From a virus (Duplodnaviria > Heunggongvirae > Uroviricota > Caudoviricetes): a stretch of 19,655 nucleotides of DNA. A program made the translations under genes and the position numbers. Below, in pieces: positions 289-19,318 of this stretch; within the stretch, counting starts at the first letter, position 1; each line of letters begins with the position of its first letter. The notes below the pieces were generated by a model, which did not search any database, was not told where the DNA came from, and worked only from the letters and a program-made list of their open reading frames with translations. The stretch covers positions 1 through 19,655 of IMG/VR virus record IMGVR_UViG_3300029577_000167. One strand, written 5' to 3'.

Positions 289-501
289 ATGGCGGTTACA
301 CTGACAGGTCTGGAAATCGAAAAAACAAGCGGCTACTGGCGTGCCAAAGGGTTCAAGCAGTCCGGCGTACTGGAACGACTGGAACGTGAAGATGGGTATA
401 TTGTCCACCAGCGACGTGAATGGCACATGTACGATCCGGAAACAGGTAAGCTCGCAACGAAGGCCGGGACACTCTGGGGTCTGCTGAAGAAAATCCACTG
501 A
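289..501 (+). CDS. hypothetical protein (70 aa)
   Basis: ATG at 289 preceded by AGGAGG (276-281) with 7-nt spacer; ORF track lists it from an upstream TTG at 286. No recognisable motif. Confidence 0.5.
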   Translation: MAVTLTGLEIEKTSGYWRAKGFKQSGVLERLEREDGYIVHQRREWHMYDPETGKLATKAGTLWGLLKKIH

Positions 502-510
502 TAACACTAT

Positions 511-1110
511 CCACTGCGGTGAGTAGCCAGCTCACCGCGTGTGAATCCGGCTCATAACCACTGTAGCGAGTAGAACACCCTTCAGGTATGCACCCCAACC
601 ACTGTAGTGAGCAAACCCTCTGCCACGATATCAACTATCCACTGTAGTGAGTAAATTGGTGATTATCGGGGTCGCTATACACTGTAGTGAGTAAACAGGC
701 GTTCACTGACTACAAACAACCACTATAGAGAGTGATGGAATGCCCCCTCCAGCGGATATCCACTATGGAGAGTAAATCTTCGCTGTTTTAAACGGATATC
801 CACTCACTACAGTGGATAGAGGTCAAGTCAGCCAATTCTGCTCTTCACAGTGGATAGTCAACAATGAGGAGAGCGACGATAACCGCTGTAGAGAGTAGAC
901 TTAACAGAGATACCCAGTGACCGCTAACCTCTCAGCCCTTGTTTTATCTATGTTTGCAACCACTAACATTTACTTCGCGATTTGTGCGCACTGCCTACAG
1001 TGGTTATTCTTCGGTTTCTTTTACTCACTACAGTGGATATTGCATTTCCGATAAACAAAAAGGCTCACTATCTACTGTAGTGAGCCTTTTTACTCTCTAC
1101 AGTGGTTGGG
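511..1110. repeat. RepFIB-type iteron cluster downstream of repA (at least 12 copies of CCACTGTAGTGAGTA-like repeats in both orientations)
   Basis: Copies at 511-526, 559-574, 599-614, 639-654, 679-694, 720-735, 760-775, 883-898, 1069-1084 (forward) and 803-815, 996-1010, 1023-1037, 1097-1110 (inverted); spacing in the regular stretch about 40 bp. Confidence 0.75.
1056..1091 (-). terminator. hairpin terminator downstream of repA (bidirectional form)
   Basis: 10-bp stem AGGCTCACTA (1061-1070) / TAGTGAGCCT (1078-1087), flanked by an A-run (1056-1060) and a T-run (1087-1091); lies about 25 bp past the repA stop. Confidence 0.55.
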
Positions 1111-2166
1111 CTATTTGCGAGCCTTTGCCTTGCGCAGCTCTTCGAGAATCGCCAGTTCTTCCTTGCTCAACATGACCATTTCCCCGTCTTTTTCTTCAGG
1201 GGCAACATCGATAATGTCCTCCGGATCATCACCTGGCAAGATATCTTCTGGCTCTTCAGGCGTAGCCATAGATGGCGGCAGTGCCGAACGTAACTTCGGC
1301 CGTCTATAGTGGATGACGAAGTAGACCGAGCTGCCGCGTTTCACTTCAGTGTAATCGAGATAGCCGATCTCTCGCAGCTGCTCCATCGCCTTCCTGACTG
1401 TCGCATTCTGGGTAATGGTGCGGCTGGTTAAGTTAAGTCTGGCGCGTAAGCGAGCCAATGAGATTGGCGCCGGGTCTGGTGGCAAACTTTCAATGAAGGT
1501 GTAGAGCGCCTGCGCGGATTCCTTTCTGGAGAGTTCGTTGATGGCCCGAAGTTGCAAAAGCACCTTTTTGTCGAACTGGTAAAGTTCGAAAATCTTAGGA
1601 TCGGCCTTCAGTTCGACCGTGTCATTCTTGGTACTGTACTTTGCCGTCTGCACAAGGTGCGTAACGTAATACTCTTCAGAGCCTTTGCTGCGGAATGAGA
1701 TGGTGTTTGTGGCGATACGACTTAGAGAGCTGTCCAGGCGCTTACGTAACTTCGCGGACGATCTGGCTGTTGGTATGCCACAAAGTCTGACGAACTCGAC
1801 GAACGGCAACGTGACGGTGTCACCAACAACCTTGTGCTTGGCGAACGCGTGGATGATGCCCACCCATGTTTTGAAATCGTTATCCATATCAAGACGAAGA
1901 CCAGCAATCCTTATATCCTCGTACCCTTCGGCTTTGGCCAGAGACAGCTGTTTGAGTTCAGCGGAGGCGTCCATAGAGACCATTTGCCCCTTTCTACCCC
2001 TGGATGTCGATTTCAGCGTCGGAACGAAGAGACCAAGACGCATCAGAGCAACAGGCTGAACTGTGTTGTTGGTGTTAGGAACTAACGTAACAACTTCGCC
2101 GGTCTTTTTGTCTGTTTCGGAAAATGCTTCGCTTATCGCAATGTTTTTATTGTCGTTTACGCTCAT
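1111..2166 (-). CDS. repA: plasmid replication initiator RepA, RepFIB type (351 aa)
   Basis: Motifs [111 protein letters not shown] match the RepFIB RepA of IncF plasmids as recalled; iterons flank the gene on both sides. Confidence 0.9.
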
Positions 2167-2207
2167 TCCAAATGTCTCTTTTTATTCGACGGCTTGGGTG
2201 CCTTTAC

Positions 2208-2330
2208 TGATTACAGTGGATAGTAGCACCCATCACAGTGGTTATCCTACCGCCTACAGCGGTTTTTCTACTCTCCATAGTGGTTGATTTACTCTCTATA
2301 GTGGTTGTTCTTCTCACTATAGTGGATATC
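2208..2330. repeat. RepFIB iteron cluster upstream of repA (6 direct repeats, about 21-bp period)
   Basis: TGATTACAGTGGATAG (2208), CATCACAGTGGTTATC (2231), CGCCTACAGCGGTTTT (2250), CTCTCCATAGTGGTTGA (2270), CTCTCTATAGTGGTTGT (2291), CTCACTATAGTGGATATC (2312). Confidence 0.75.
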
Positions 2331-2371
2331 GATAACCTCTAAAGCCATGTGGCACAACGGTTTGCAGGGGC

Positions 2372-2445
2372 CGGGGATCTCTTTGGGTCTTTGTGGTTCT
2401 CTTTGGTTCTAACAGGGATCTGAATTACTGGATCGGGCCTGTGTA
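2372..2445. promoter_or_regulatory. GATC-containing origin-associated segment, copy 1
   Basis: GATC at 2376, 2417, 2431; the segment GGGGATCTCT...TGGATCGGGCCTGTGTATAAA is repeated at 2752-2835. Confidence 0.45.
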
Positions 2446-2609
2446 TAAAAATCAGATAATTACAAAATCAGGCATCACTCCCCTTCTGGGGATAATGTGT
2501 GATCGAAATAAACACGCCGCAACGCAAAATTTACAATATTTCCAAGAATATCAGCCATCTGCCGCAGAAAAACAGGCTCGGAGTTATCCAGTTAAAACAT
2601 TGTCTCCTA

Positions 2610-2712
2610 CTCACTACAGTGGATACCGACTACTCTCCAGAGAGGTTGTTTTGCTCTTCATAGCGGTTATTATGCTCTCTACAGTGGTTATTTTGCTCCC
2701 TATAGTGGATAG
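2610..2712. repeat. third iteron cluster (5 direct repeats, about 21-bp period)
   Basis: CTCACTACAGTGGATACC (2610), CTCTCCAGAGAGGTTGT (2632), CTCTTCATAGCGGTTAT (2654), CTCTCTACAGTGGTTAT (2675), CTCCCTATAGTGGATAG (2696). Confidence 0.7.
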
Positions 2713-2751
2713 TAACCCCTTCTCAAGCCAGTAACCGCAAGCGCTGGAGAC

Positions 2752-2835
2752 GATCGGGGATCTCTTTTGATCTTCTGTAGGATCTCTCTGGGGATCTAAA
2801 TATTGGATCGGGCCTGTGAATAAAGTGAATAAGTA
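2752..2835. promoter_or_regulatory. GATC-rich origin-associated segment, copy 2 (6 GATC in 58 bp)
   Basis: GATC at 2752, 2759, 2769, 2781, 2793, 2806; ends with TGGATCGGGCCTGTGAATAAAG, parallel to copy 1. Confidence 0.5.
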
Positions 2836-2908
2836 AACAGGCATTTGCAAACTCCGGTGCGCCTTATCCGTTATCGTTGCCCCGGACAAAATTATTTGAA
2901 CAAGAATT

Positions 2909-3553
2909 ATGGATCTTAAACGCACGCGCTGGGTTCGCCGTCTTGAAGATGGCTCCTACACCATTGAATCAAACACTAGTCTGAACAAACAGAAGTTGCT
3001 CTGCGACCTTTGCGGCATTGCTTCGAAATGCCCGATTAACGAAACCCGGCTTAAACTCCACGACGCCGGTGCGCATTTCCACCTAAACAGCTGCATACGT
3101 TACGTGCCACTACTAGCATTTCGTAAACCGATCATCGGATTGGATGCTCCCTACTTCAACACACTGCGCTCTGGTGTCACTTGGCGAGATCGTGTCGAAC
3201 CTGGCAAACTCGTTTGTCTGGTTGAAGCTGATACTGGAAATATCATCCGGTTCGGGAGAGTTGATAAGGTCTACTCAGGCCCGGTGGATGAAATACTGCG
3301 GAAACACAGCCGATTTAACCATCTCTGCATGGGCGGAGAGAAGATTGAGAAGGTTGGCGAAGTAATTCGCAAATCTTACGGACACTTTCTGAATGATAAC
3401 AGCCTTCTGACAGCCATTTACATTCGACATGTCGATCGGGAGTTCGACACGGAGTATCACAGTGCTGAAGAGTTGAATCTTGTAGACCCTCGTCCAAAAG
3501 CTGGGGTAATAGACATTAGCAGAGCGCGTCAGAAGCCCTCAGAGACGTTTTAA
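2909..3553 (+). CDS. hypothetical protein (214 aa), cysteine/histidine pairs suggest possible metal binding
   Basis: Long non-overlapping ORF; CDLCG...C and HFHLNSC clusters; no obvious Shine-Dalgarno; family not recognised. Confidence 0.5.
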   Translation: MDLKRTRWVRRLEDGSYTIESNTSLNKQKLLCDLCGIASKCPINETRLKLHDAGAHFHLNSCIRYVPLLAFRKPIIGLDAPYFNTLRSGVTWRDRVEPGKLVCLVEADTGNIIRFGRVDKVYSGPVDEILRKHSRFNHLCMGGEKIEKVGEVIRKSYGHFLNDNSLLTAIYIRHVDREFDTEYHSAEELNLVDPRPKAGVIDISRARQKPSETF

Positions 3554-3949: not shown

Positions 3950-4228
3950 ATGACATTGCCATACGGGGTAATATCAGATCCCCATTATCATCGTTGGGAT
4001 GCTTTTGCGACAACAAACGCTGACGGGCTTAACTCTCGGCTGGAGATCCAACTGGACGCTACGAAGGAGGCGGCCAAAGCGATGAAAGCTGCTGGCTGTA
4101 AGCACATGCTGGTAGCTGGTGATACCTTCCATGTTCGCGGTGCTATATCACCTTCCGTTCTGCATTTCGTGACCGAAACTTACGAGTGGATCATCAAAGA
4201 GTTGGGTCTCAAGGTGGTAAGCTGGTGA
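3950..4228 (+). CDS. metallophosphoesterase N-terminal fragment (SbcD/Mre11-like), probably truncated
   Basis: Motif I GVISDPHYH and motif II LVAGDTFH resemble the calcineurin-like phosphoesterase / SbcD N-terminus (E. coli SbcD: TSDWHLG...IVAGDVFD); only 92 aa, whereas this family is about 400 aa. RBS AAAGGAAAAG upstream. Confidence 0.45.
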   Translation: MTLPYGVISDPHYHRWDAFATTNADGLNSRLEIQLDATKEAAKAMKAAGCKHMLVAGDTFHVRGAISPSVLHFVTETYEWIIKELGLKVVSW

Positions 4229-4262
4229 TACGAAAAAGCAAGTTCGCGTTAACAGTGACGAT

Positions 4263-4664
4263 ATGCGGCGGTTGAACGAGATTTGGCGTGGTATTAAGCC
4301 ACTGATTGACCAAGTTCATTTAGTGTTCTGTGAACTGCCAGTAGGCAGTCAATCTGCTAGAGCGATGGTTTCTTATGGTGGTTGTCTTGGCGTACTGGCG
4401 TGTGTGGATAAGCCACTGATACAGGTCACGCCAAACGAGATTAAGTACTATGTCGGGAATAAGCTGACTACGTCGAAAGAAGAGATCATTCAGTGGGCTA
4501 CGCAGAAGCAGCCAAACGCCCCGTGGTTGCGCCGGAAGCAATCGGGCAAGGAAGTGCTGGTGAATAAAAACGAGCACCTTGCGGACGCTGTCGCATCGAT
4601 TTACACCGGTATGCAAACTGATCAATTCCGTCAGGTTCGCGATGTTCTTGCTGGAATTTTATAA
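4263..4664 (+). CDS. RuvC-like Holliday junction resolvase, N-terminally truncated
   Basis: ELPVGSQSARAMVSYGGCLGVLA and C-terminal NEHLADAVASIY resemble the RuvC core and its catalytic-end motif (ADAADALAIA); the N-terminal GIDPGS-type motif with the first catalytic Asp is absent. Confidence 0.4.
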   Translation: MRRLNEIWRGIKPLIDQVHLVFCELPVGSQSARAMVSYGGCLGVLACVDKPLIQVTPNEIKYYVGNKLTTSKEEIIQWATQKQPNAPWLRRKQSGKEVLVNKNEHLADAVASIYTGMQTDQFRQVRDVLAGIL

Positions 4665-4702
4665 GTTGATAATTGATAGGTAAGTGCTTATCTATTACCA
4701 TG

Positions 4703-4730
4703 AGACCACTATATATAGTGGTCTTTTTAA
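4703..4730 (+). terminator. perfect 22-bp palindrome followed by T-run
   Basis: AGACCACTATA/TATAGTGGTCT (4703-4724) followed by TTTTT (4724-4728); lies 40 bp after the RuvC-like ORF stop. Confidence 0.5.
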
Positions 4731-4902
4731 TTGGGCTACACATAATAAGCATCGTAAAACGTAACGCCCACCGAGCCGCTGCCAGCTGCATGAAGCGCTG
4801 ACAAAGTTCGCTGTCGATTGCACTGGCCCGAGCCAGTTCGAATACCAAACCCACCAGCAATCCCGTACCAACTTCAAAACCCCCGTAGTCGAGTTCAATC
4901 CC

Positions 4903-5358
4903 CAGCTCAAAACCGTAAAAGTATTCAGTGATGGCTCCTGCCTCAAAAATCCGGGCGGGCCGGGCGGTTACGGCATCGTTCTCCAGTATCGAGGCGAAGA
5001 GCGCGAGCTTTCTGAGGGCTTCCACAGCACGACCAACAATCGGATGGAGATGATGGGCGCCCTGATTGCGCTGGAGCGTCTGAAGTACCCCTGCAACGTG
5101 ATCCTGCATTCCGACAGCCAGTATCTTAAAAACGGCATGACGCTCTGGATGAAAGGCTGGAAGCGTAACGGATGGATCACGTCTGAGAAGAAGCCAGTCA
5201 AAAACGTGGATCTCTGGAAACGTCTCGACGCGGCCGCCAGTCGTCATAATGTCCGCTGGAAGTGGGTTAAAGGCCATGCAGGTCATCGCGAGAACGAAAT
5301 GTGTGACCGTCTGGCGAAGATCGCCGCCTATTGTCGAGCGAGTCTCCGCTTTTGTTAA
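4903..5358 (+). CDS. rnhA: ribonuclease HI homologue; initiation codon unresolved
   Basis: ...[23 protein letters not shown]...[18 protein letters not shown]...HSDSQY...[16 protein letters not shown]...[20 protein letters not shown] aligns along the whole length with E. coli RNase HI as recalled. The frame is open from 4765, but no ATG/GTG/TTG exists in frame before 5044 (the codon at the position of the E. coli Met is CAG). Confidence 0.75.
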
Positions 5359-5603
5359 GTCCCCGCTGAATAATCCCCTCACCCGCGGTGAGCAGATGGA
5401 GCTGGCAAGGTGGTTTCTGCGTATCCATGAGCAGATGGAAGTTTTTAAACAGTTGCCGGATCTGCCCATTACAGACGGCCAAATTCAGTGTGCCACTTCA
5501 GTACGGTCGACGATGACAACGACGCAAACCTGCTTTTCGTCAAATCCGAAATCATAAAGTTGCGCAGGGAGAGAGAGAAATCGACGCAGAGCAGGCCCGC
5601 AAT

Positions 5604-5819
5604 ATGTGGGACGAGGCAGAAAACGCTGATGACGTAAAAGAAAGTTGCTGCTGTTTCGGTGTCGGTAACGAACTGCTGAGTCTGTTTGGTGACGATCCGT
5701 GGTATGCCGGTTGGCCAACGGTGCCAAACCCCAGATACCAATACCTGGAACGTATCATGAACGCGGTACGTAATGGGCTGAAAGAGCTTCACAATCAGAT
5801 GAGAGAAGCAATCGGTTAA
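5604..5819 (+). CDS. hypothetical small protein (71 aa)
   Basis: ORF with ATG start; no clear SD; contains a CCC triplet (SCCCFG). Confidence 0.35.
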   Translation: MWDEAENADDVKESCCCFGVGNELLSLFGDDPWYAGWPTVPNPRYQYLERIMNAVRNGLKELHNQMREAIG

Positions 5820-15510: not shown

Positions 15511-16038
15511 TTAAAACGGTAAAATCCGTTCGACCCAATCGAACATGGCGACTGTCTTCCTACCGTCCCCCATGTTGAGTGTGACCTGACAAGCGTCAAC
15601 GCCTGAAGACACCCCCTCAATTTCACGGCCATCCGCCATGTAGACCCTTATAGACTTCTGCATCTCATGGGCCTGGCGACAAATTTTGAAGAAATCACGG
15701 CGAGATGGCCGATTGTCCACATAGTCTGGGTGTATCGTTGTCCGACCCGTGAAGTCGTGTGCAATGCCTTCTGTCACACCTGATTCAATCGTGCTGATTC
15801 GCTCAAGTGGGAGCCTTATACGATTATCTTTGTCGAACGGGGCAGGGCAAAGGTCGACCTTGTTGCGTGACGACATGAGACCCTGAACATACATGCAGAA
15901 CACCTGACCATCTTCCATCGTGACCCTTACAGGAATAAGAGACTTGCGCCAGAACATCAGCGCTTTCTCCACGTTGGTGTAATCGCGCGGCCAGACTTCT
16001 GCAGGAATCCCGTAGGTGATGTCAGTAATATTCGTCAT
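15511..16038 (-). CDS. hypothetical protein (175 aa) with internal duplication of an RVxMxDG module
   Basis: Start ATG at 16038 lies 2 nt after the upstream stop (ORF track extends to 16080). PVRVTMEDGQVF...LERISTIE and SIRVYMADGREI...FDWVERI look like tandem copies. Confidence 0.5.
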   Translation of the reverse strand: MTNITDITYGIPAEVWPRDYTNVEKALMFWRKSLIPVRVTMEDGQVFCMYVQGLMSSRNKVDLCPAPFDKDNRIRLPLERISTIESGVTEGIAHDFTGRTTIHPDYVDNRPSRRDFFKICRQAHEMQKSIRVYMADGREIEGVSSGVDACQVTLNMGDGRKTVAMFDWVERILPF

Positions 16039-16042
16039 ATCG

Positions 16043-16465
16043 TCACAGTGTCGTTGGTAAGATATCGATGTCACCAGCATTACTGGTGAACACCCGGAAG
16101 ACTTTCGTCTCGCCAGCTTTGGTAATCGTCTCGCGTTCCTGACGAGCAGGATTCAGTGCGCACAGCCCAGCGTCTTCGAGTGAGGCGCCAACAATCCATT
16201 CTCCGGCATCCAGATGAAAAGTGACTTTTTCACCTGTTTCCAGTTTTGCAACGGTTTCGCCATTGATGAAGATCGATGCGTCGCAACCGGCGCCCACCAT
16301 GCTTTTATCTCTCATAACCACCAGCGTCGATGCCGCCGGAGATTGGTATTTGAATATTCTGGTCTGCGGTGCTGGCTTTGCCTCAGAGACAGGAATAGGA
16401 CGAGATTGACATGCAGTGATAAGTAACGCGGAGGCAGCAACCAGAGGAAGTAATACGTGTTTCAT
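16043..16465 (-). CDS. predicted lipoprotein (140 aa)
   Basis: MKHVLLPLVAASALLITAC: signal peptide with lipobox LITAC; ORF track start at 16501 is upstream of the likely Met. Confidence 0.6.
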   Translation of the reverse strand: MKHVLLPLVAASALLITACQSRPIPVSEAKPAPQTRIFKYQSPAASTLVVMRDKSMVGAGCDASIFINGETVAKLETGEKVTFHLDAGEWIVGASLEDAGLCALNPARQERETITKAGETKVFRVFTSNAGDIDILPTTL

Positions 16466-18430: not shown

Positions 18431-19318
18431 ATGTATTGTATCAAAAATATGGATGTGAAAATTACGATTCTACAGGTGGAAGTCGCGAACCTGCGTCCGA
18501 ACCCCTGGAATACCAACTCCGTTGGGGCGCAAAACTTCGAAAAACTGAAAGGTTCCATCGAAAAGTTGGGCTTTTTTAAGCCAATTCTGGCGCGAGAGCT
18601 GGACGGCGGCATTTTTGAAATTCTCGGTGGCGAACATCGCTGGCGTGCCGCGATGGAGCAGGGCATTTCAACGGTTCCCGTCATCTCCGTGGGCAAAATT
18701 AACGACCTGGTGGCCAAACAGATGTCCCTCGTCGACAACGAGCGCTACGGCGAAGACGATCAGGTCGCTTTGCAGCGCTTAATCGAAGAAATCCAGTCTG
18801 AAATCGACTACCGGTTGTCCGATATCGCCCCGTATGACGACGAAATGGCGGCAACACTCGCCAAAGCATCCGTTATCGATCTTGAAGCGCTGGAAGCGCT
18901 CTCCCGTGGCGATGACGAGCCGGTCGATGAGGACAAACGCGAGAAAACCGAGCGAGTCGGCGCTGAACACCAGACGATGCGCTTCAAGGTGACGTTTGAT
19001 GCGTCAGATCGGGTCATCGAACAGAAGACTCTCGAAACCCATGAGGTCGTCGAGTTTGAGCTGTCGAGTGTGTTCGACCTGATGGGCGTGCAGCTGCCGT
19101 ACCGCCAGATCATCAAAAACACATGCCCGTGGAGATACCGCGGACCAGAGTGCGGCTACACCGGTCCGTACTTCGACAAAAACAACCAGCAAACCACCAT
19201 GTCAGGAGCGGATTGCTGCACGAAACGTTACGACTCATGCAACGCACGGCGCAACTACTTTGCCAATGGCGTAATCCACTTTGGCGGGTTCATTGGGGCA
19301 ACGCGTTATGGGCAATAG
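18431..19318 (+). CDS. ParB-like N-terminal domain protein with C-terminal lambda gpL-like cysteine module
   Basis: N-terminus LRPNPWNTN...ILARELDGGIFEILGGEHRWRAAMEQGISTVPVI...VDNERYGED fits the ParB/Srx fold (GxxRxxA); C-terminus NTCPWRYRGPECGYTGP...CCTKRYDSC...FGGF parallels the lambda minor tail protein L C-terminus (NTCTWTYRGDECGYSGP...CSKCLSGC...FGGF) as recalled. Start uncertain (18431 or 18449). Confidence 0.75.
   Translation: MYCIKNMDVKITILQVEVANLRPNPWNTNSVGAQNFEKLKGSIEKLGFFKPILARELDGGIFEILGGEHRWRAAMEQGISTVPVISVGKINDLVAKQMSLVDNERYGEDDQVALQRLIEEIQSEIDYRLSDIAPYDDEMAATLAKASVIDLEALEALSRGDDEPVDEDKREKTERVGAEHQTMRFKVTFDASDRVIEQKTLETHEVVEFELSSVFDLMGVQLPYRQIIKNTCPWRYRGPECGYTGPYFDKNNQQTTMSGADCCTKRYDSCNARRNYFANGVIHFGGFIGATRYGQ

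Follow-up and report, generated by a model that had tools for sequence, protein, structure and literature searches.

Organisation of the replication region

The window (the whole stretch of 19,655 nucleotides analysed here) carries repA, which encodes an initiator of the Rep3 family. A large cluster of iterons lies downstream of this gene; upstream of it, two successive units, each made of an iteron array, a spacer, a core of short repeats and one or two DnaA boxes, extend towards a gene encoding a protein of 214 aa (Table 1). RepA is 61% identical to the Rep protein of classical RepFIB (E 4e-144), 50% to the Rep of pKPHS1-like phage-plasmids and 49% to the RepA of P1 (E 1e-92), and thus has the Rep3-family homology of the initiators of P1 oriR/RepFIB-type origins; its counterparts in plasmids 99.9% identical to the window are annotated as RepA.

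The rep region (1100-2900) is 99.9% identical to IncFIB-typed E. coli plasmids of ~95-190 kb, ~90-91% identical to the Salmonella phage SSU5, to Enterobacter and Salmonella plasmids and to pMT1 of Y. pestis, and 82.5% identical to Cyrano, the phage-plasmid that E. coli LF82 carries. On the basis of these sequence identities, we regard the window as part of an SSU5/pMT1/pHCM2-like phage-plasmid. The plasmid collection searched contained no fully collinear match for the whole 19.6 kb, which suggests that the window is a rearranged or deleted derivative.

Table 1. Features identified between the downstream iteron cluster and the distal DnaA boxes (positions in the window)
Feature	Position	Strand	Basis
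Downstream iteron cluster, at least 14 iterons in both orientations	505-1111		PWM, 15-28 bits
repA, Rep3-family initiator, 351 aa	1111-2166	-	Pfam Rep3_N, E 2.4e-11; Rep3_C just under cut-off
Proximal iteron array, six iterons in 21-22-bp phase, consensus CTACTCTCTACAGTGGTTATTA	2204-2331	+	PWM scan; TRF period 21
Unit 1 spacer, G+C-richer, 53% GC	2332-2371		Composition
Proximal GATC-poor core	2372-2439		GATC at 2376, 2417 and 2431 only
Single DnaA box of unit 1, TTATACACA	2440-2448	-	Exact match to TTATNCACA; box column conserved across the clade
Inter-unit spacer, 40% GC, one GATC (2501)	2449-2606		Least conserved part; diversity 0.247, 26% invariant columns
Distal iteron array, five iterons in 21-bp phase	2607-2714	+	PWM scan, TRF; most conserved block, 70% invariant columns
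Unit 2 spacer, G+C-rich, 59% GC	2715-2751		Homologous to the G+C-rich stretch of the P1 origin core (62% GC)
Distal GATC-dense core, GATCT-led repeats	2752-2814		GATC at 2752, 2759, 2769, 2781, 2793 and 2806
Two tandem DnaA boxes, TTATTCACA (2815-2823) and TTATTCACT (2824-2832)	2815-2832	-	First exact TTATNCACA; second with one mismatch

Iterons were located with a PWM built from the 11 upstream iterons. Downstream of repA, this PWM matches the minus strand at 505, 552, 593, 633, 673, 714, 754, 877 and 1066 and the plus strand at 740, 800, 838, 988, 1021 and 1090. According to the annotation of P1, whose record includes nine incA iterons downstream of repA, and to the model of the FIB replicon, in which oriV is formed by the upstream iterons and inhibition, through Rep-mediated handcuffing, is strongest from the downstream ones (PMC11983097), this cluster is the counterpart of P1 incA and of the RepFIB downstream repeats and would act as a copy-control (handcuffing) locus. 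The first-pass annotation had missed this third, incA-like cluster, as well as the doubling of the whole unit and the fact that a single copy is GATC-dense, both described below.

None of the iterons contains GATC. The cores, with 48-50% G+C, are not strongly A+T-rich unwinding elements, and the nearest-neighbour duplex-stability profile is alike in both units (a stable spacer, then less stable repeats); duplex stability was consequently discarded as a pointer to the active core, since it favours neither. The single sigma-70-like match, which is weak (2343-2316 on the minus strand, 9/12), was not retained as a repA promoter because the matches of this region are not significantly above those of shuffled sequences. 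The overlapping ORFs 2393-2734 (+), 2499-2663 (+) and 2614-2925 (-) were judged spurious because relatives annotate no gene between repA and the 214-aa ORF and because the copies differ by 8- and 10-bp indels. Rfam, searched at E<=1 over positions 400-3000, gave two matches, both far under the gathering scores and both outside the origin region. Finally, an oriC-type origin relying on DnaA only was rejected, as each unit has just one or two DnaA boxes and as RepA and iterons are present.

The GATC cluster and the duplicated unit

The chance level of GATC clustering was estimated from 1000 first-order Markov simulations of the window, the statistic being the number of GATC within 60 bp. Six GATC had been reported within 58 bp; they are indeed found at 2752-2809, and 0/1000 simulations reach six within 60 bp, the simulated maximum being five (4/1000 runs). 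The whole window contains 72 GATC for ~77 expected and is therefore without general GATC enrichment.

The first-pass annotation also described a GATC-dense segment present twice, at 2372-2445 and 2752-2835, with an iteron cluster (2610-2712) between the copies. The repeats are genuine (2372-2391 and 2755-2774 are 90% identical, 2423-2449 and 2798-2824 are 89% identical), and their offsets of 383 and 375 differ by an 8-bp indel, but the ends were misplaced: according to the AGGCAT motif, the copies span 2373-2475 and 2756-2844. High GATC density applies to the second copy and not to the first, which has three GATC and whose other repeats begin with GGTCT or GTTCT. The duplication, moreover, is larger than that segment, for a whole unit of ~260 bp is doubled, made of a 21-bp iteron array, a G+C-rich spacer, GATC-led repeats of ~11 bp and the DnaA box or boxes. 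The two copies of this unit, at 2204-2475 and 2607-2844, show 78% column identity over ~260 bp. The iteron arrays are paired as well (repeat D1, 2247-2347 with 2630-2730) and belong to the duplication; the iterons at 2610-2712 are therefore the array of the second unit rather than an element separating two copies.

The six repeats of the proximal core read GGGGATCTCTTT, GGGTCTTTGT, GGTTCTCTTT, GGTTCTAACAG, GGATCTGAATTACT and GGATCGGG, and TRF detects a 10-bp tandem period at 2378-2410. The W of CCTGTGWATAAA corresponds to the free position of the DnaA box (TTATNCACA on the opposite strand). From the end of the iterons to GATC no. 2 the distance is 45 bp in both units (2331 to 2376 and 2714 to 2759), and 47 bp in P1.

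Homology to P1 oriR and RepFIB origins

To avoid circularity, a core profile was built solely from three distal cores of the SSU5 family. Searched against 49.8 kb of P1, this profile gave a single match, which is the annotated oriR core (E 2.6e-15); it also matches the cores of RepFIB (2e-7), IncFIB(K) (3e-14) and pKPHS1-like elements (1e-22 and 8e-19). We aligned the cores of P1 oriR, RepFIB (IncFIB plasmid p6409, our classical RepFIB reference, L010), IncFIB(K) (pKPN-a68), two pKPHS1-like phage-plasmids, SSU5 and Cyrano with both copies from the window. Throughout this alignment GGGATCT and the terminal GGATC are invariant, and the distal core of the window is 61% identical to P1 over 134 aligned positions and 55% identical to the classical RepFIB core.

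The order of elements is collinear too. The annotated P1 origin, in the same orientation relative to repA, consists of five incC iterons, a G+C-rich stretch, five Dam sites and a tandem DnaA site, just as the window has iterons in 21-bp phase, a G+C-rich spacer, GATC repeats and tandem DnaA boxes, the latter positioned as the annotated tandem DnaA site of P1 oriR (L005 17892-17909). The GATC sites of the distal core, spaced by 7, 10, 12, 12 and 13 bp, correspond by homology to the five Dam sites annotated in P1, which are individually critical and spaced by 7, 10, 11 and 23 bp, with a GACC repeat inside the 23-bp gap. Both replicons have a large iteron cluster downstream of repA. P1 differs in its iterons, which are unrelated in sequence (CAGCACACA, against an ACAGTGG core in the window), and in having five GATC rather than six; in the window, by contrast, the whole unit upstream of repA is doubled, its proximal copy being poor in GATC, and the iterons downstream of the gene do not share one orientation.

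Classical RepFIB replicons (P307, F, pO157 and REPI of pColV-K30, itself a RepFIB-type replicon) resemble the window in their Rep protein, in their upstream and downstream iterons and in the IncFIB typing of the window's near-identical and more distant relatives. The p6409 origin has a single homologous core, which comprises a DnaA box and five GATC spaced by ~11 bp. These replicons differ by a single upstream unit and by the lower identity of their core to the distal copy, and the subclade of the window is found on phage-plasmids and on plasmids of Rahnella, Pantoea and Erwinia.

The RepFIB assignment and the likeness to P1 oriR that had been proposed at first reading are thus borne out by typing, initiator homology and core homology. 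Arrays of six and five iterons in 21-bp phase, spacers, DnaA boxes, a downstream iteron cluster and a homologous core are all found, as in P1 oriR/RepFIB-type origins; the four to six phased GATC of such origins occur in the distal core, whereas the proximal core has three only. The GATC-dense region is, almost certainly, a P1-type origin core. A distant BLAST search with the intergenic region showed that the distal core is 73-79% conserved in ~2500 other plasmids and that the iterons are not conserved. This fits a core acting as a host-factor module (DnaA, Dam, SeqA, unwinding), common to replicons with diverged Rep-iteron pairs.

That the GATC cluster might have nothing to do with replication, arising by chance or serving to switch transcription of the 214-aa gene or of repA in a Dam-sensitive manner, was considered because the 214-aa ORF (2909) starts just ~95 bp downstream of the distal core and because core and gene stay together in pKPHS1-like elements. 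We judge this highly improbable: the simulations never reproduce the cluster, the core is homologous to the functionally annotated core of P1 oriR, and it adjoins rep in IncFIB(K), in RepFIB and in many plasmids that are devoid of the 214-aa gene.

Distribution of the two-unit layout among relatives

We scanned 118 loci encoding RepA relatives with the core profile. Two cores are present upstream of rep in all SSU5-like loci with enough flanking sequence (six GATC in the distal core, three to five in the proximal one) and in most loci whose RepA is ~68-77% identical (Rahnella, Erwinia, many Pantoea, Buttiauxella and Kluyvera), as well as, weakly, in Xenorhabdus. A single core is found in P1, in classical RepFIB, in IncFIB(K) and in those Pantoea replicons that are more distant. 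With 55 distinct loci in several genera of Enterobacterales, the tandem duplication of the unit is old.

The asymmetry of the two cores is equally widespread. Among the 55 distinct two-core loci, the distal core contains more GATC than the proximal core in 51, as many in 3 and fewer in 1 (means 5.6 vs 3.8; Wilcoxon p 3e-10), and obtains the higher profile score in 53/55. Occupancy of the six GATC positions is 0.50, 1.00, 0.72, 1.00, 0.70 and 1.00 in distal cores and 0.07, 0.94, 0.02, 0.31, 0.50 and 0.98 in proximal cores, the corresponding values in single-core replicons being 0.67, 1.00, 0.76, 0.93, 0.71 and 0.93. Briefly, distal cores almost always keep five or six GATC and two DnaA boxes, whereas proximal cores keep about three GATC and one box, the second box being usually absent.

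Despite this depletion, the proximal core is not decaying and is still a conserved paralogue: its diversity is 0.087, compared with 0.112 in the distal core and 0.247 in the spacer between the units, in a set of 24 distinct SSU5-like sequences dominated by a few subgroups. Core identities were of no use for telling orthology from concerted evolution; they are saturated (~0.61-0.67 between subclades), with proximal-proximal values no higher than proximal-distal ones, so that only shared character states are informative. Such states exist at repeats 3 and 4, where Rahnella has the same GGTCT and GTTCT as the SSU5-like family. Other lineages have GAAC at these repeats, which implies that GATC was lost there more than once or that the positions kept drifting.

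Which unit initiates replication

Taken as a whole, the locus is best explained, and probably so, as the P1 oriR/RepFIB-type origin of an SSU5-like phage-plasmid that fires from its distal unit. Indeed, we infer that the distal unit (2607-2832) is probably the main start site, for three reasons. Its composition matches that of all single-core, presumably functional, origins. In the Franconibacter and Scandinavium loci L016 and L034 (RepA 77% and 71% identical, respectively), the rep-proximal iterons are followed by no core at all, and an intact GATC core with a DnaA box is kept solely after the distal array of five or six iterons. Lastly, the single core of pKPHS1-like phage-plasmids is placed as the distal core of the window, adjoining the same 214-aa gene.

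According to this proposal, an origin unit would comprise five or six RepA-binding iterons in 21-bp phase, then a G+C-rich spacer of fixed length and the GATCT-led repeats of ~11 bp, which would form the duplex-unwinding core and whose GATC sites would be Dam substrates, with the DnaA box or boxes at the outer end. Initiation is expected, from the homology to P1, to need fully methylated GATC sites; after replication, the hemimethylated core would be bound by SeqA and re-initiation delayed. RepA-mediated pairing with the downstream iteron cluster (505-1111) would set the copy number. The distal unit, which would have kept the full ancestral set with six GATC and two DnaA boxes, would be the most likely start site: its array would provide the origin iterons, and its core (2752-2814) is the presumed Dam-methylated unwinding region and SeqA target. 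In the proximal unit (2204-2448), the iterons next to the repA start presumably form the operator/promoter region of repA, by analogy with P1 incC/PrepA, and the core, an old conserved paralogue in which three GATC and one DnaA box are left, may play an auxiliary or regulatory role.

As a counterpoint, the proximal unit could be the original origin, because its position (core ~166-300 bp from the rep start) matches that of P1 oriR and of the single core of many relatives; the distance from rep start to core is 163 bp in P1 and ~145 bp in single-core Pantoea replicons. The proximal core is as conserved as the distal one, together with its exact 45-bp spacer and its DnaA box, so it is no dead copy and could fire in its own right, and the natural GACC at one repeat of P1 indicates that not every repeat needs a GATC. 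The proximal unit would then be the working origin and the distal unit an accessory control element, either an extra handcuffing partner or a DnaA/SeqA-binding sink coupling replication to the methylation cycle. We consider this arrangement unlikely: loss of three of the six GATC and of the second DnaA box affects the proximal core of almost every member; the loci L016 and L034 dispense with the proximal core and keep the distal one; and single-core replicons resemble the distal, not the proximal, copy in GATC content and DnaA boxes.

Equally unlikely in our opinion is that both units are functional origins, redundant or condition-specific, for example one that can be sequestered through Dam and SeqA and one that is largely exempt. 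Both units are complete (iterons, spacer, repeats and DnaA box) and under purifying selection in the SSU5-like family, and a difference in GATC number that is stable across 55 loci is what two specialised versions would be expected to show. Nevertheless, we retrieved no precedent in this family for one Rep serving two tandem iteron origins, one core suffices in L016 and L034, and the sequence bears no sign of a condition-specific switch.

A further reading, which is speculative and which we consider rather unlikely, is that the subclade with the ancient tandem duplication keeps its two cores as a two-part device, of which the Dam-rich part has six GATC and two DnaA boxes and the Dam-poor part has GATC at repeats 2, 5 and 6 and one box. 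The device might, for instance, combine a SeqA-sequestrable origin with a core that resists sequestration and either provides a backup start site or links repA expression to DnaA and to the methylation state. The two-core subclade includes the SSU5/pMT1/pHCM2 phage-plasmids and many plasmids of Rahnella, Pantoea, Erwinia, Buttiauxella and Kluyvera. To our knowledge, and leaving aside the 1998 papers on pMT1, paired Dam-rich and Dam-poor origin cores have not been described for P1 or RepFIB.

Dam, SeqA and DnaA

The 13-mer (DUE) region of E. coli oriC offers a functional analogy only. Like the window, it has GATCT-led short repeats that adjoin DnaA boxes; these are Dam-methylated, as is presumed for those of the window, and the first repeat of the window (GATCTCTTTTGAT) resembles the 13-mer consensus (GATCTnTTnTTTT). 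The window differs in that it has no array of DnaA boxes and needs a plasmid Rep and iterons, and its repeats are shorter and less A+T-rich (48% GC). SeqA and DnaA both act on the oriC 13-mer region (PMC5043065). At the P1 origin, DnaA alone can begin the opening and RepA helps greatly, and the role of the G+C-rich sequence flanking the core is described as unclear (PMC5043065).

In E. coli, plasmids P1 and ColV-K30 cannot do without methylation of their origins, according to Demarre and Chattoraj (PMC2865523), where the finding is credited to Abeles & Austin 1987 and Gammie & Crosa 1991. The reason for this need is unclear according to the same source, initiator binding being an unlikely one because the initiator sites of P1 and ColV-K30 contain no GATC; its reference list also includes Brendler and Austin's work on the binding of SeqA to separate hemimethylated GATC sites. 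Since the P1 and pColV-K30 origins are both reported to need Dam, homology supports a Dam-controlled reading of the window origin, and this replicon is likely to be controlled by Dam and SeqA as in P1; Dam dependence and SeqA binding were demonstrated in P1 only, and would extend to the window replicon by homology. V. cholerae oriII, with its initiator RctB, is likewise an iteron-type origin that is dense in GATC, requires Dam and is under SeqA control (PMC2865523); however, GATC lies inside its initiator sites, whose binding by RctB needs methylation, in contrast to the GATC-free iterons of the window and P1, and the initiators are unrelated.

In Y. pestis pMT1, >99% of GATC are methylated and none of the four reported under-methylated loci (0/4) falls in the rep region (PMC13321490), so the GATC of the origin are presumably ordinary Dam substrates without stable protection. 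This bulk methylome indicates no persistent hemimethylation at the origin and is neutral as to transient sequestration (PMC13321490). The literature searched, which did not extend to the primary papers on pMT1, RepFIB and P1, contained no functional study of the pMT1/pHCM2/SSU5 replicon. A preprint on a heteroresistance phage-plasmid was set aside as a source, its replicon being of the IncFII type (CopA/RepA).

Significance for the phage-plasmid family

The origin type described here is already known and will be no surprise to specialists; what is added is the doubling of the whole unit with one GATC-depleted core, a modest variant whose interest lies in its architecture. The analysis assigns to the P1 oriR/RepFIB type the origin by which a widespread family of phage-plasmids, including SSU5, pHCM2 (S. 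Typhi), pMT1 (Y. pestis) and pLF82/Cyrano (E. coli), is maintained. The expected consequence is a dependence of these elements on the Dam, DnaA and SeqA of their host. This may be of use for annotation, for the design of mini-replicons and curing cassettes and for host-range prediction, Dam-positive Enterobacterales being the expected hosts. Finally, the two-unit layout constitutes a natural experiment on the number of GATC repeats and DnaA boxes needed by a P1-type core, and may reflect a division of labour that followed the duplication of the origin.

Replicon modules and the gene beside the origin core

The distal core, the GATC-dense origin core farther from repA, is adjoined by a 214-aa gene whose counterpart in Cyrano, a phage-plasmid of E. 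coli LF82, is annotated as an ASCH-domain protein. The linkage between origin core and 214-aa gene is kept in the pKPHS1-like phage-plasmids (L003 and L004), despite a Rep that is only 50% identical. Phage-plasmid backbones may swap replicon modules by crossing over at this conserved core. In both L003 and L004, repeated CCGCTGACAGCATAC-like motifs, iteron-like in look, adjoin the GATC core at about 2400-2460. The annotated start of the "RepB family" CDS appears to fall within these putative iterons and was probably placed too far upstream.

Coordinates and assignments of the features described in this section
Feature	Sequence	Position	Strand	Assignment or extent
214-aa gene	Window	2909-3553	+	phrog_2105
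214-aa gene counterpart	L003	2661-3305
214-aa gene counterpart	L004	from 2661
"RepB family" CDS	L003	1245-2459		404 aa
"RepB family" CDS	L004	1242-2459		404 aa
SbcD-like metallophosphoesterase	Window	3950-4228		N-terminal part, first ~90 residues only
RuvC-like resolvase fragment	Window	4263-4664		downstream of SbcD-like ORF; family positions 134-259 matched
Neighbouring ORFs	Window	4498-5792	-	323 aa and 107 aa
FljA-type ORF	Window	15511-16080	-	189 aa; matches PF03614 ("repressor of phase-1 flagellin") at E 2e-95
Chimeric ORF	Window	18431-19318	+	ParB N-terminal domain and phage minor tail protein L part

Gene content and candidate joints

The SbcD-like ORF is cut short (about 361 aa in relatives), a RuvC-like fragment follows it and a 12-bp direct repeat, AGCTGGTGATAC, is present in two copies (4114-4125 and 4220-4231), so that the whole stretch from 3950 to 4664 looks like a deletion joint. 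Two ORFs of 323 and 107 aa, adjacent to each other, gave no match in Pfam, PHROG or NCBIfam, and over their stretch the best plasmid matches covered only 4219-4846, with 100% identity. At about this position the plasmid p1585m1_B, elsewhere 99.9% identical to the window, is annotated with an IS3-family transposase, and the window is therefore unlike its closest relatives here.

The phage-plasmid backbone also carries a flagellar phase-variation regulator, the FljA-type ORF.

Finally, the chimeric ORF has a ParB N-terminal domain at residues 14-103, joined to the C-terminal half of phage minor tail protein L at residues 195-293. The best plasmid matches of the window stop within this ORF, at 19015, and this suggests a joint made by recombination or deletion, by which the tail module would be inactivated.
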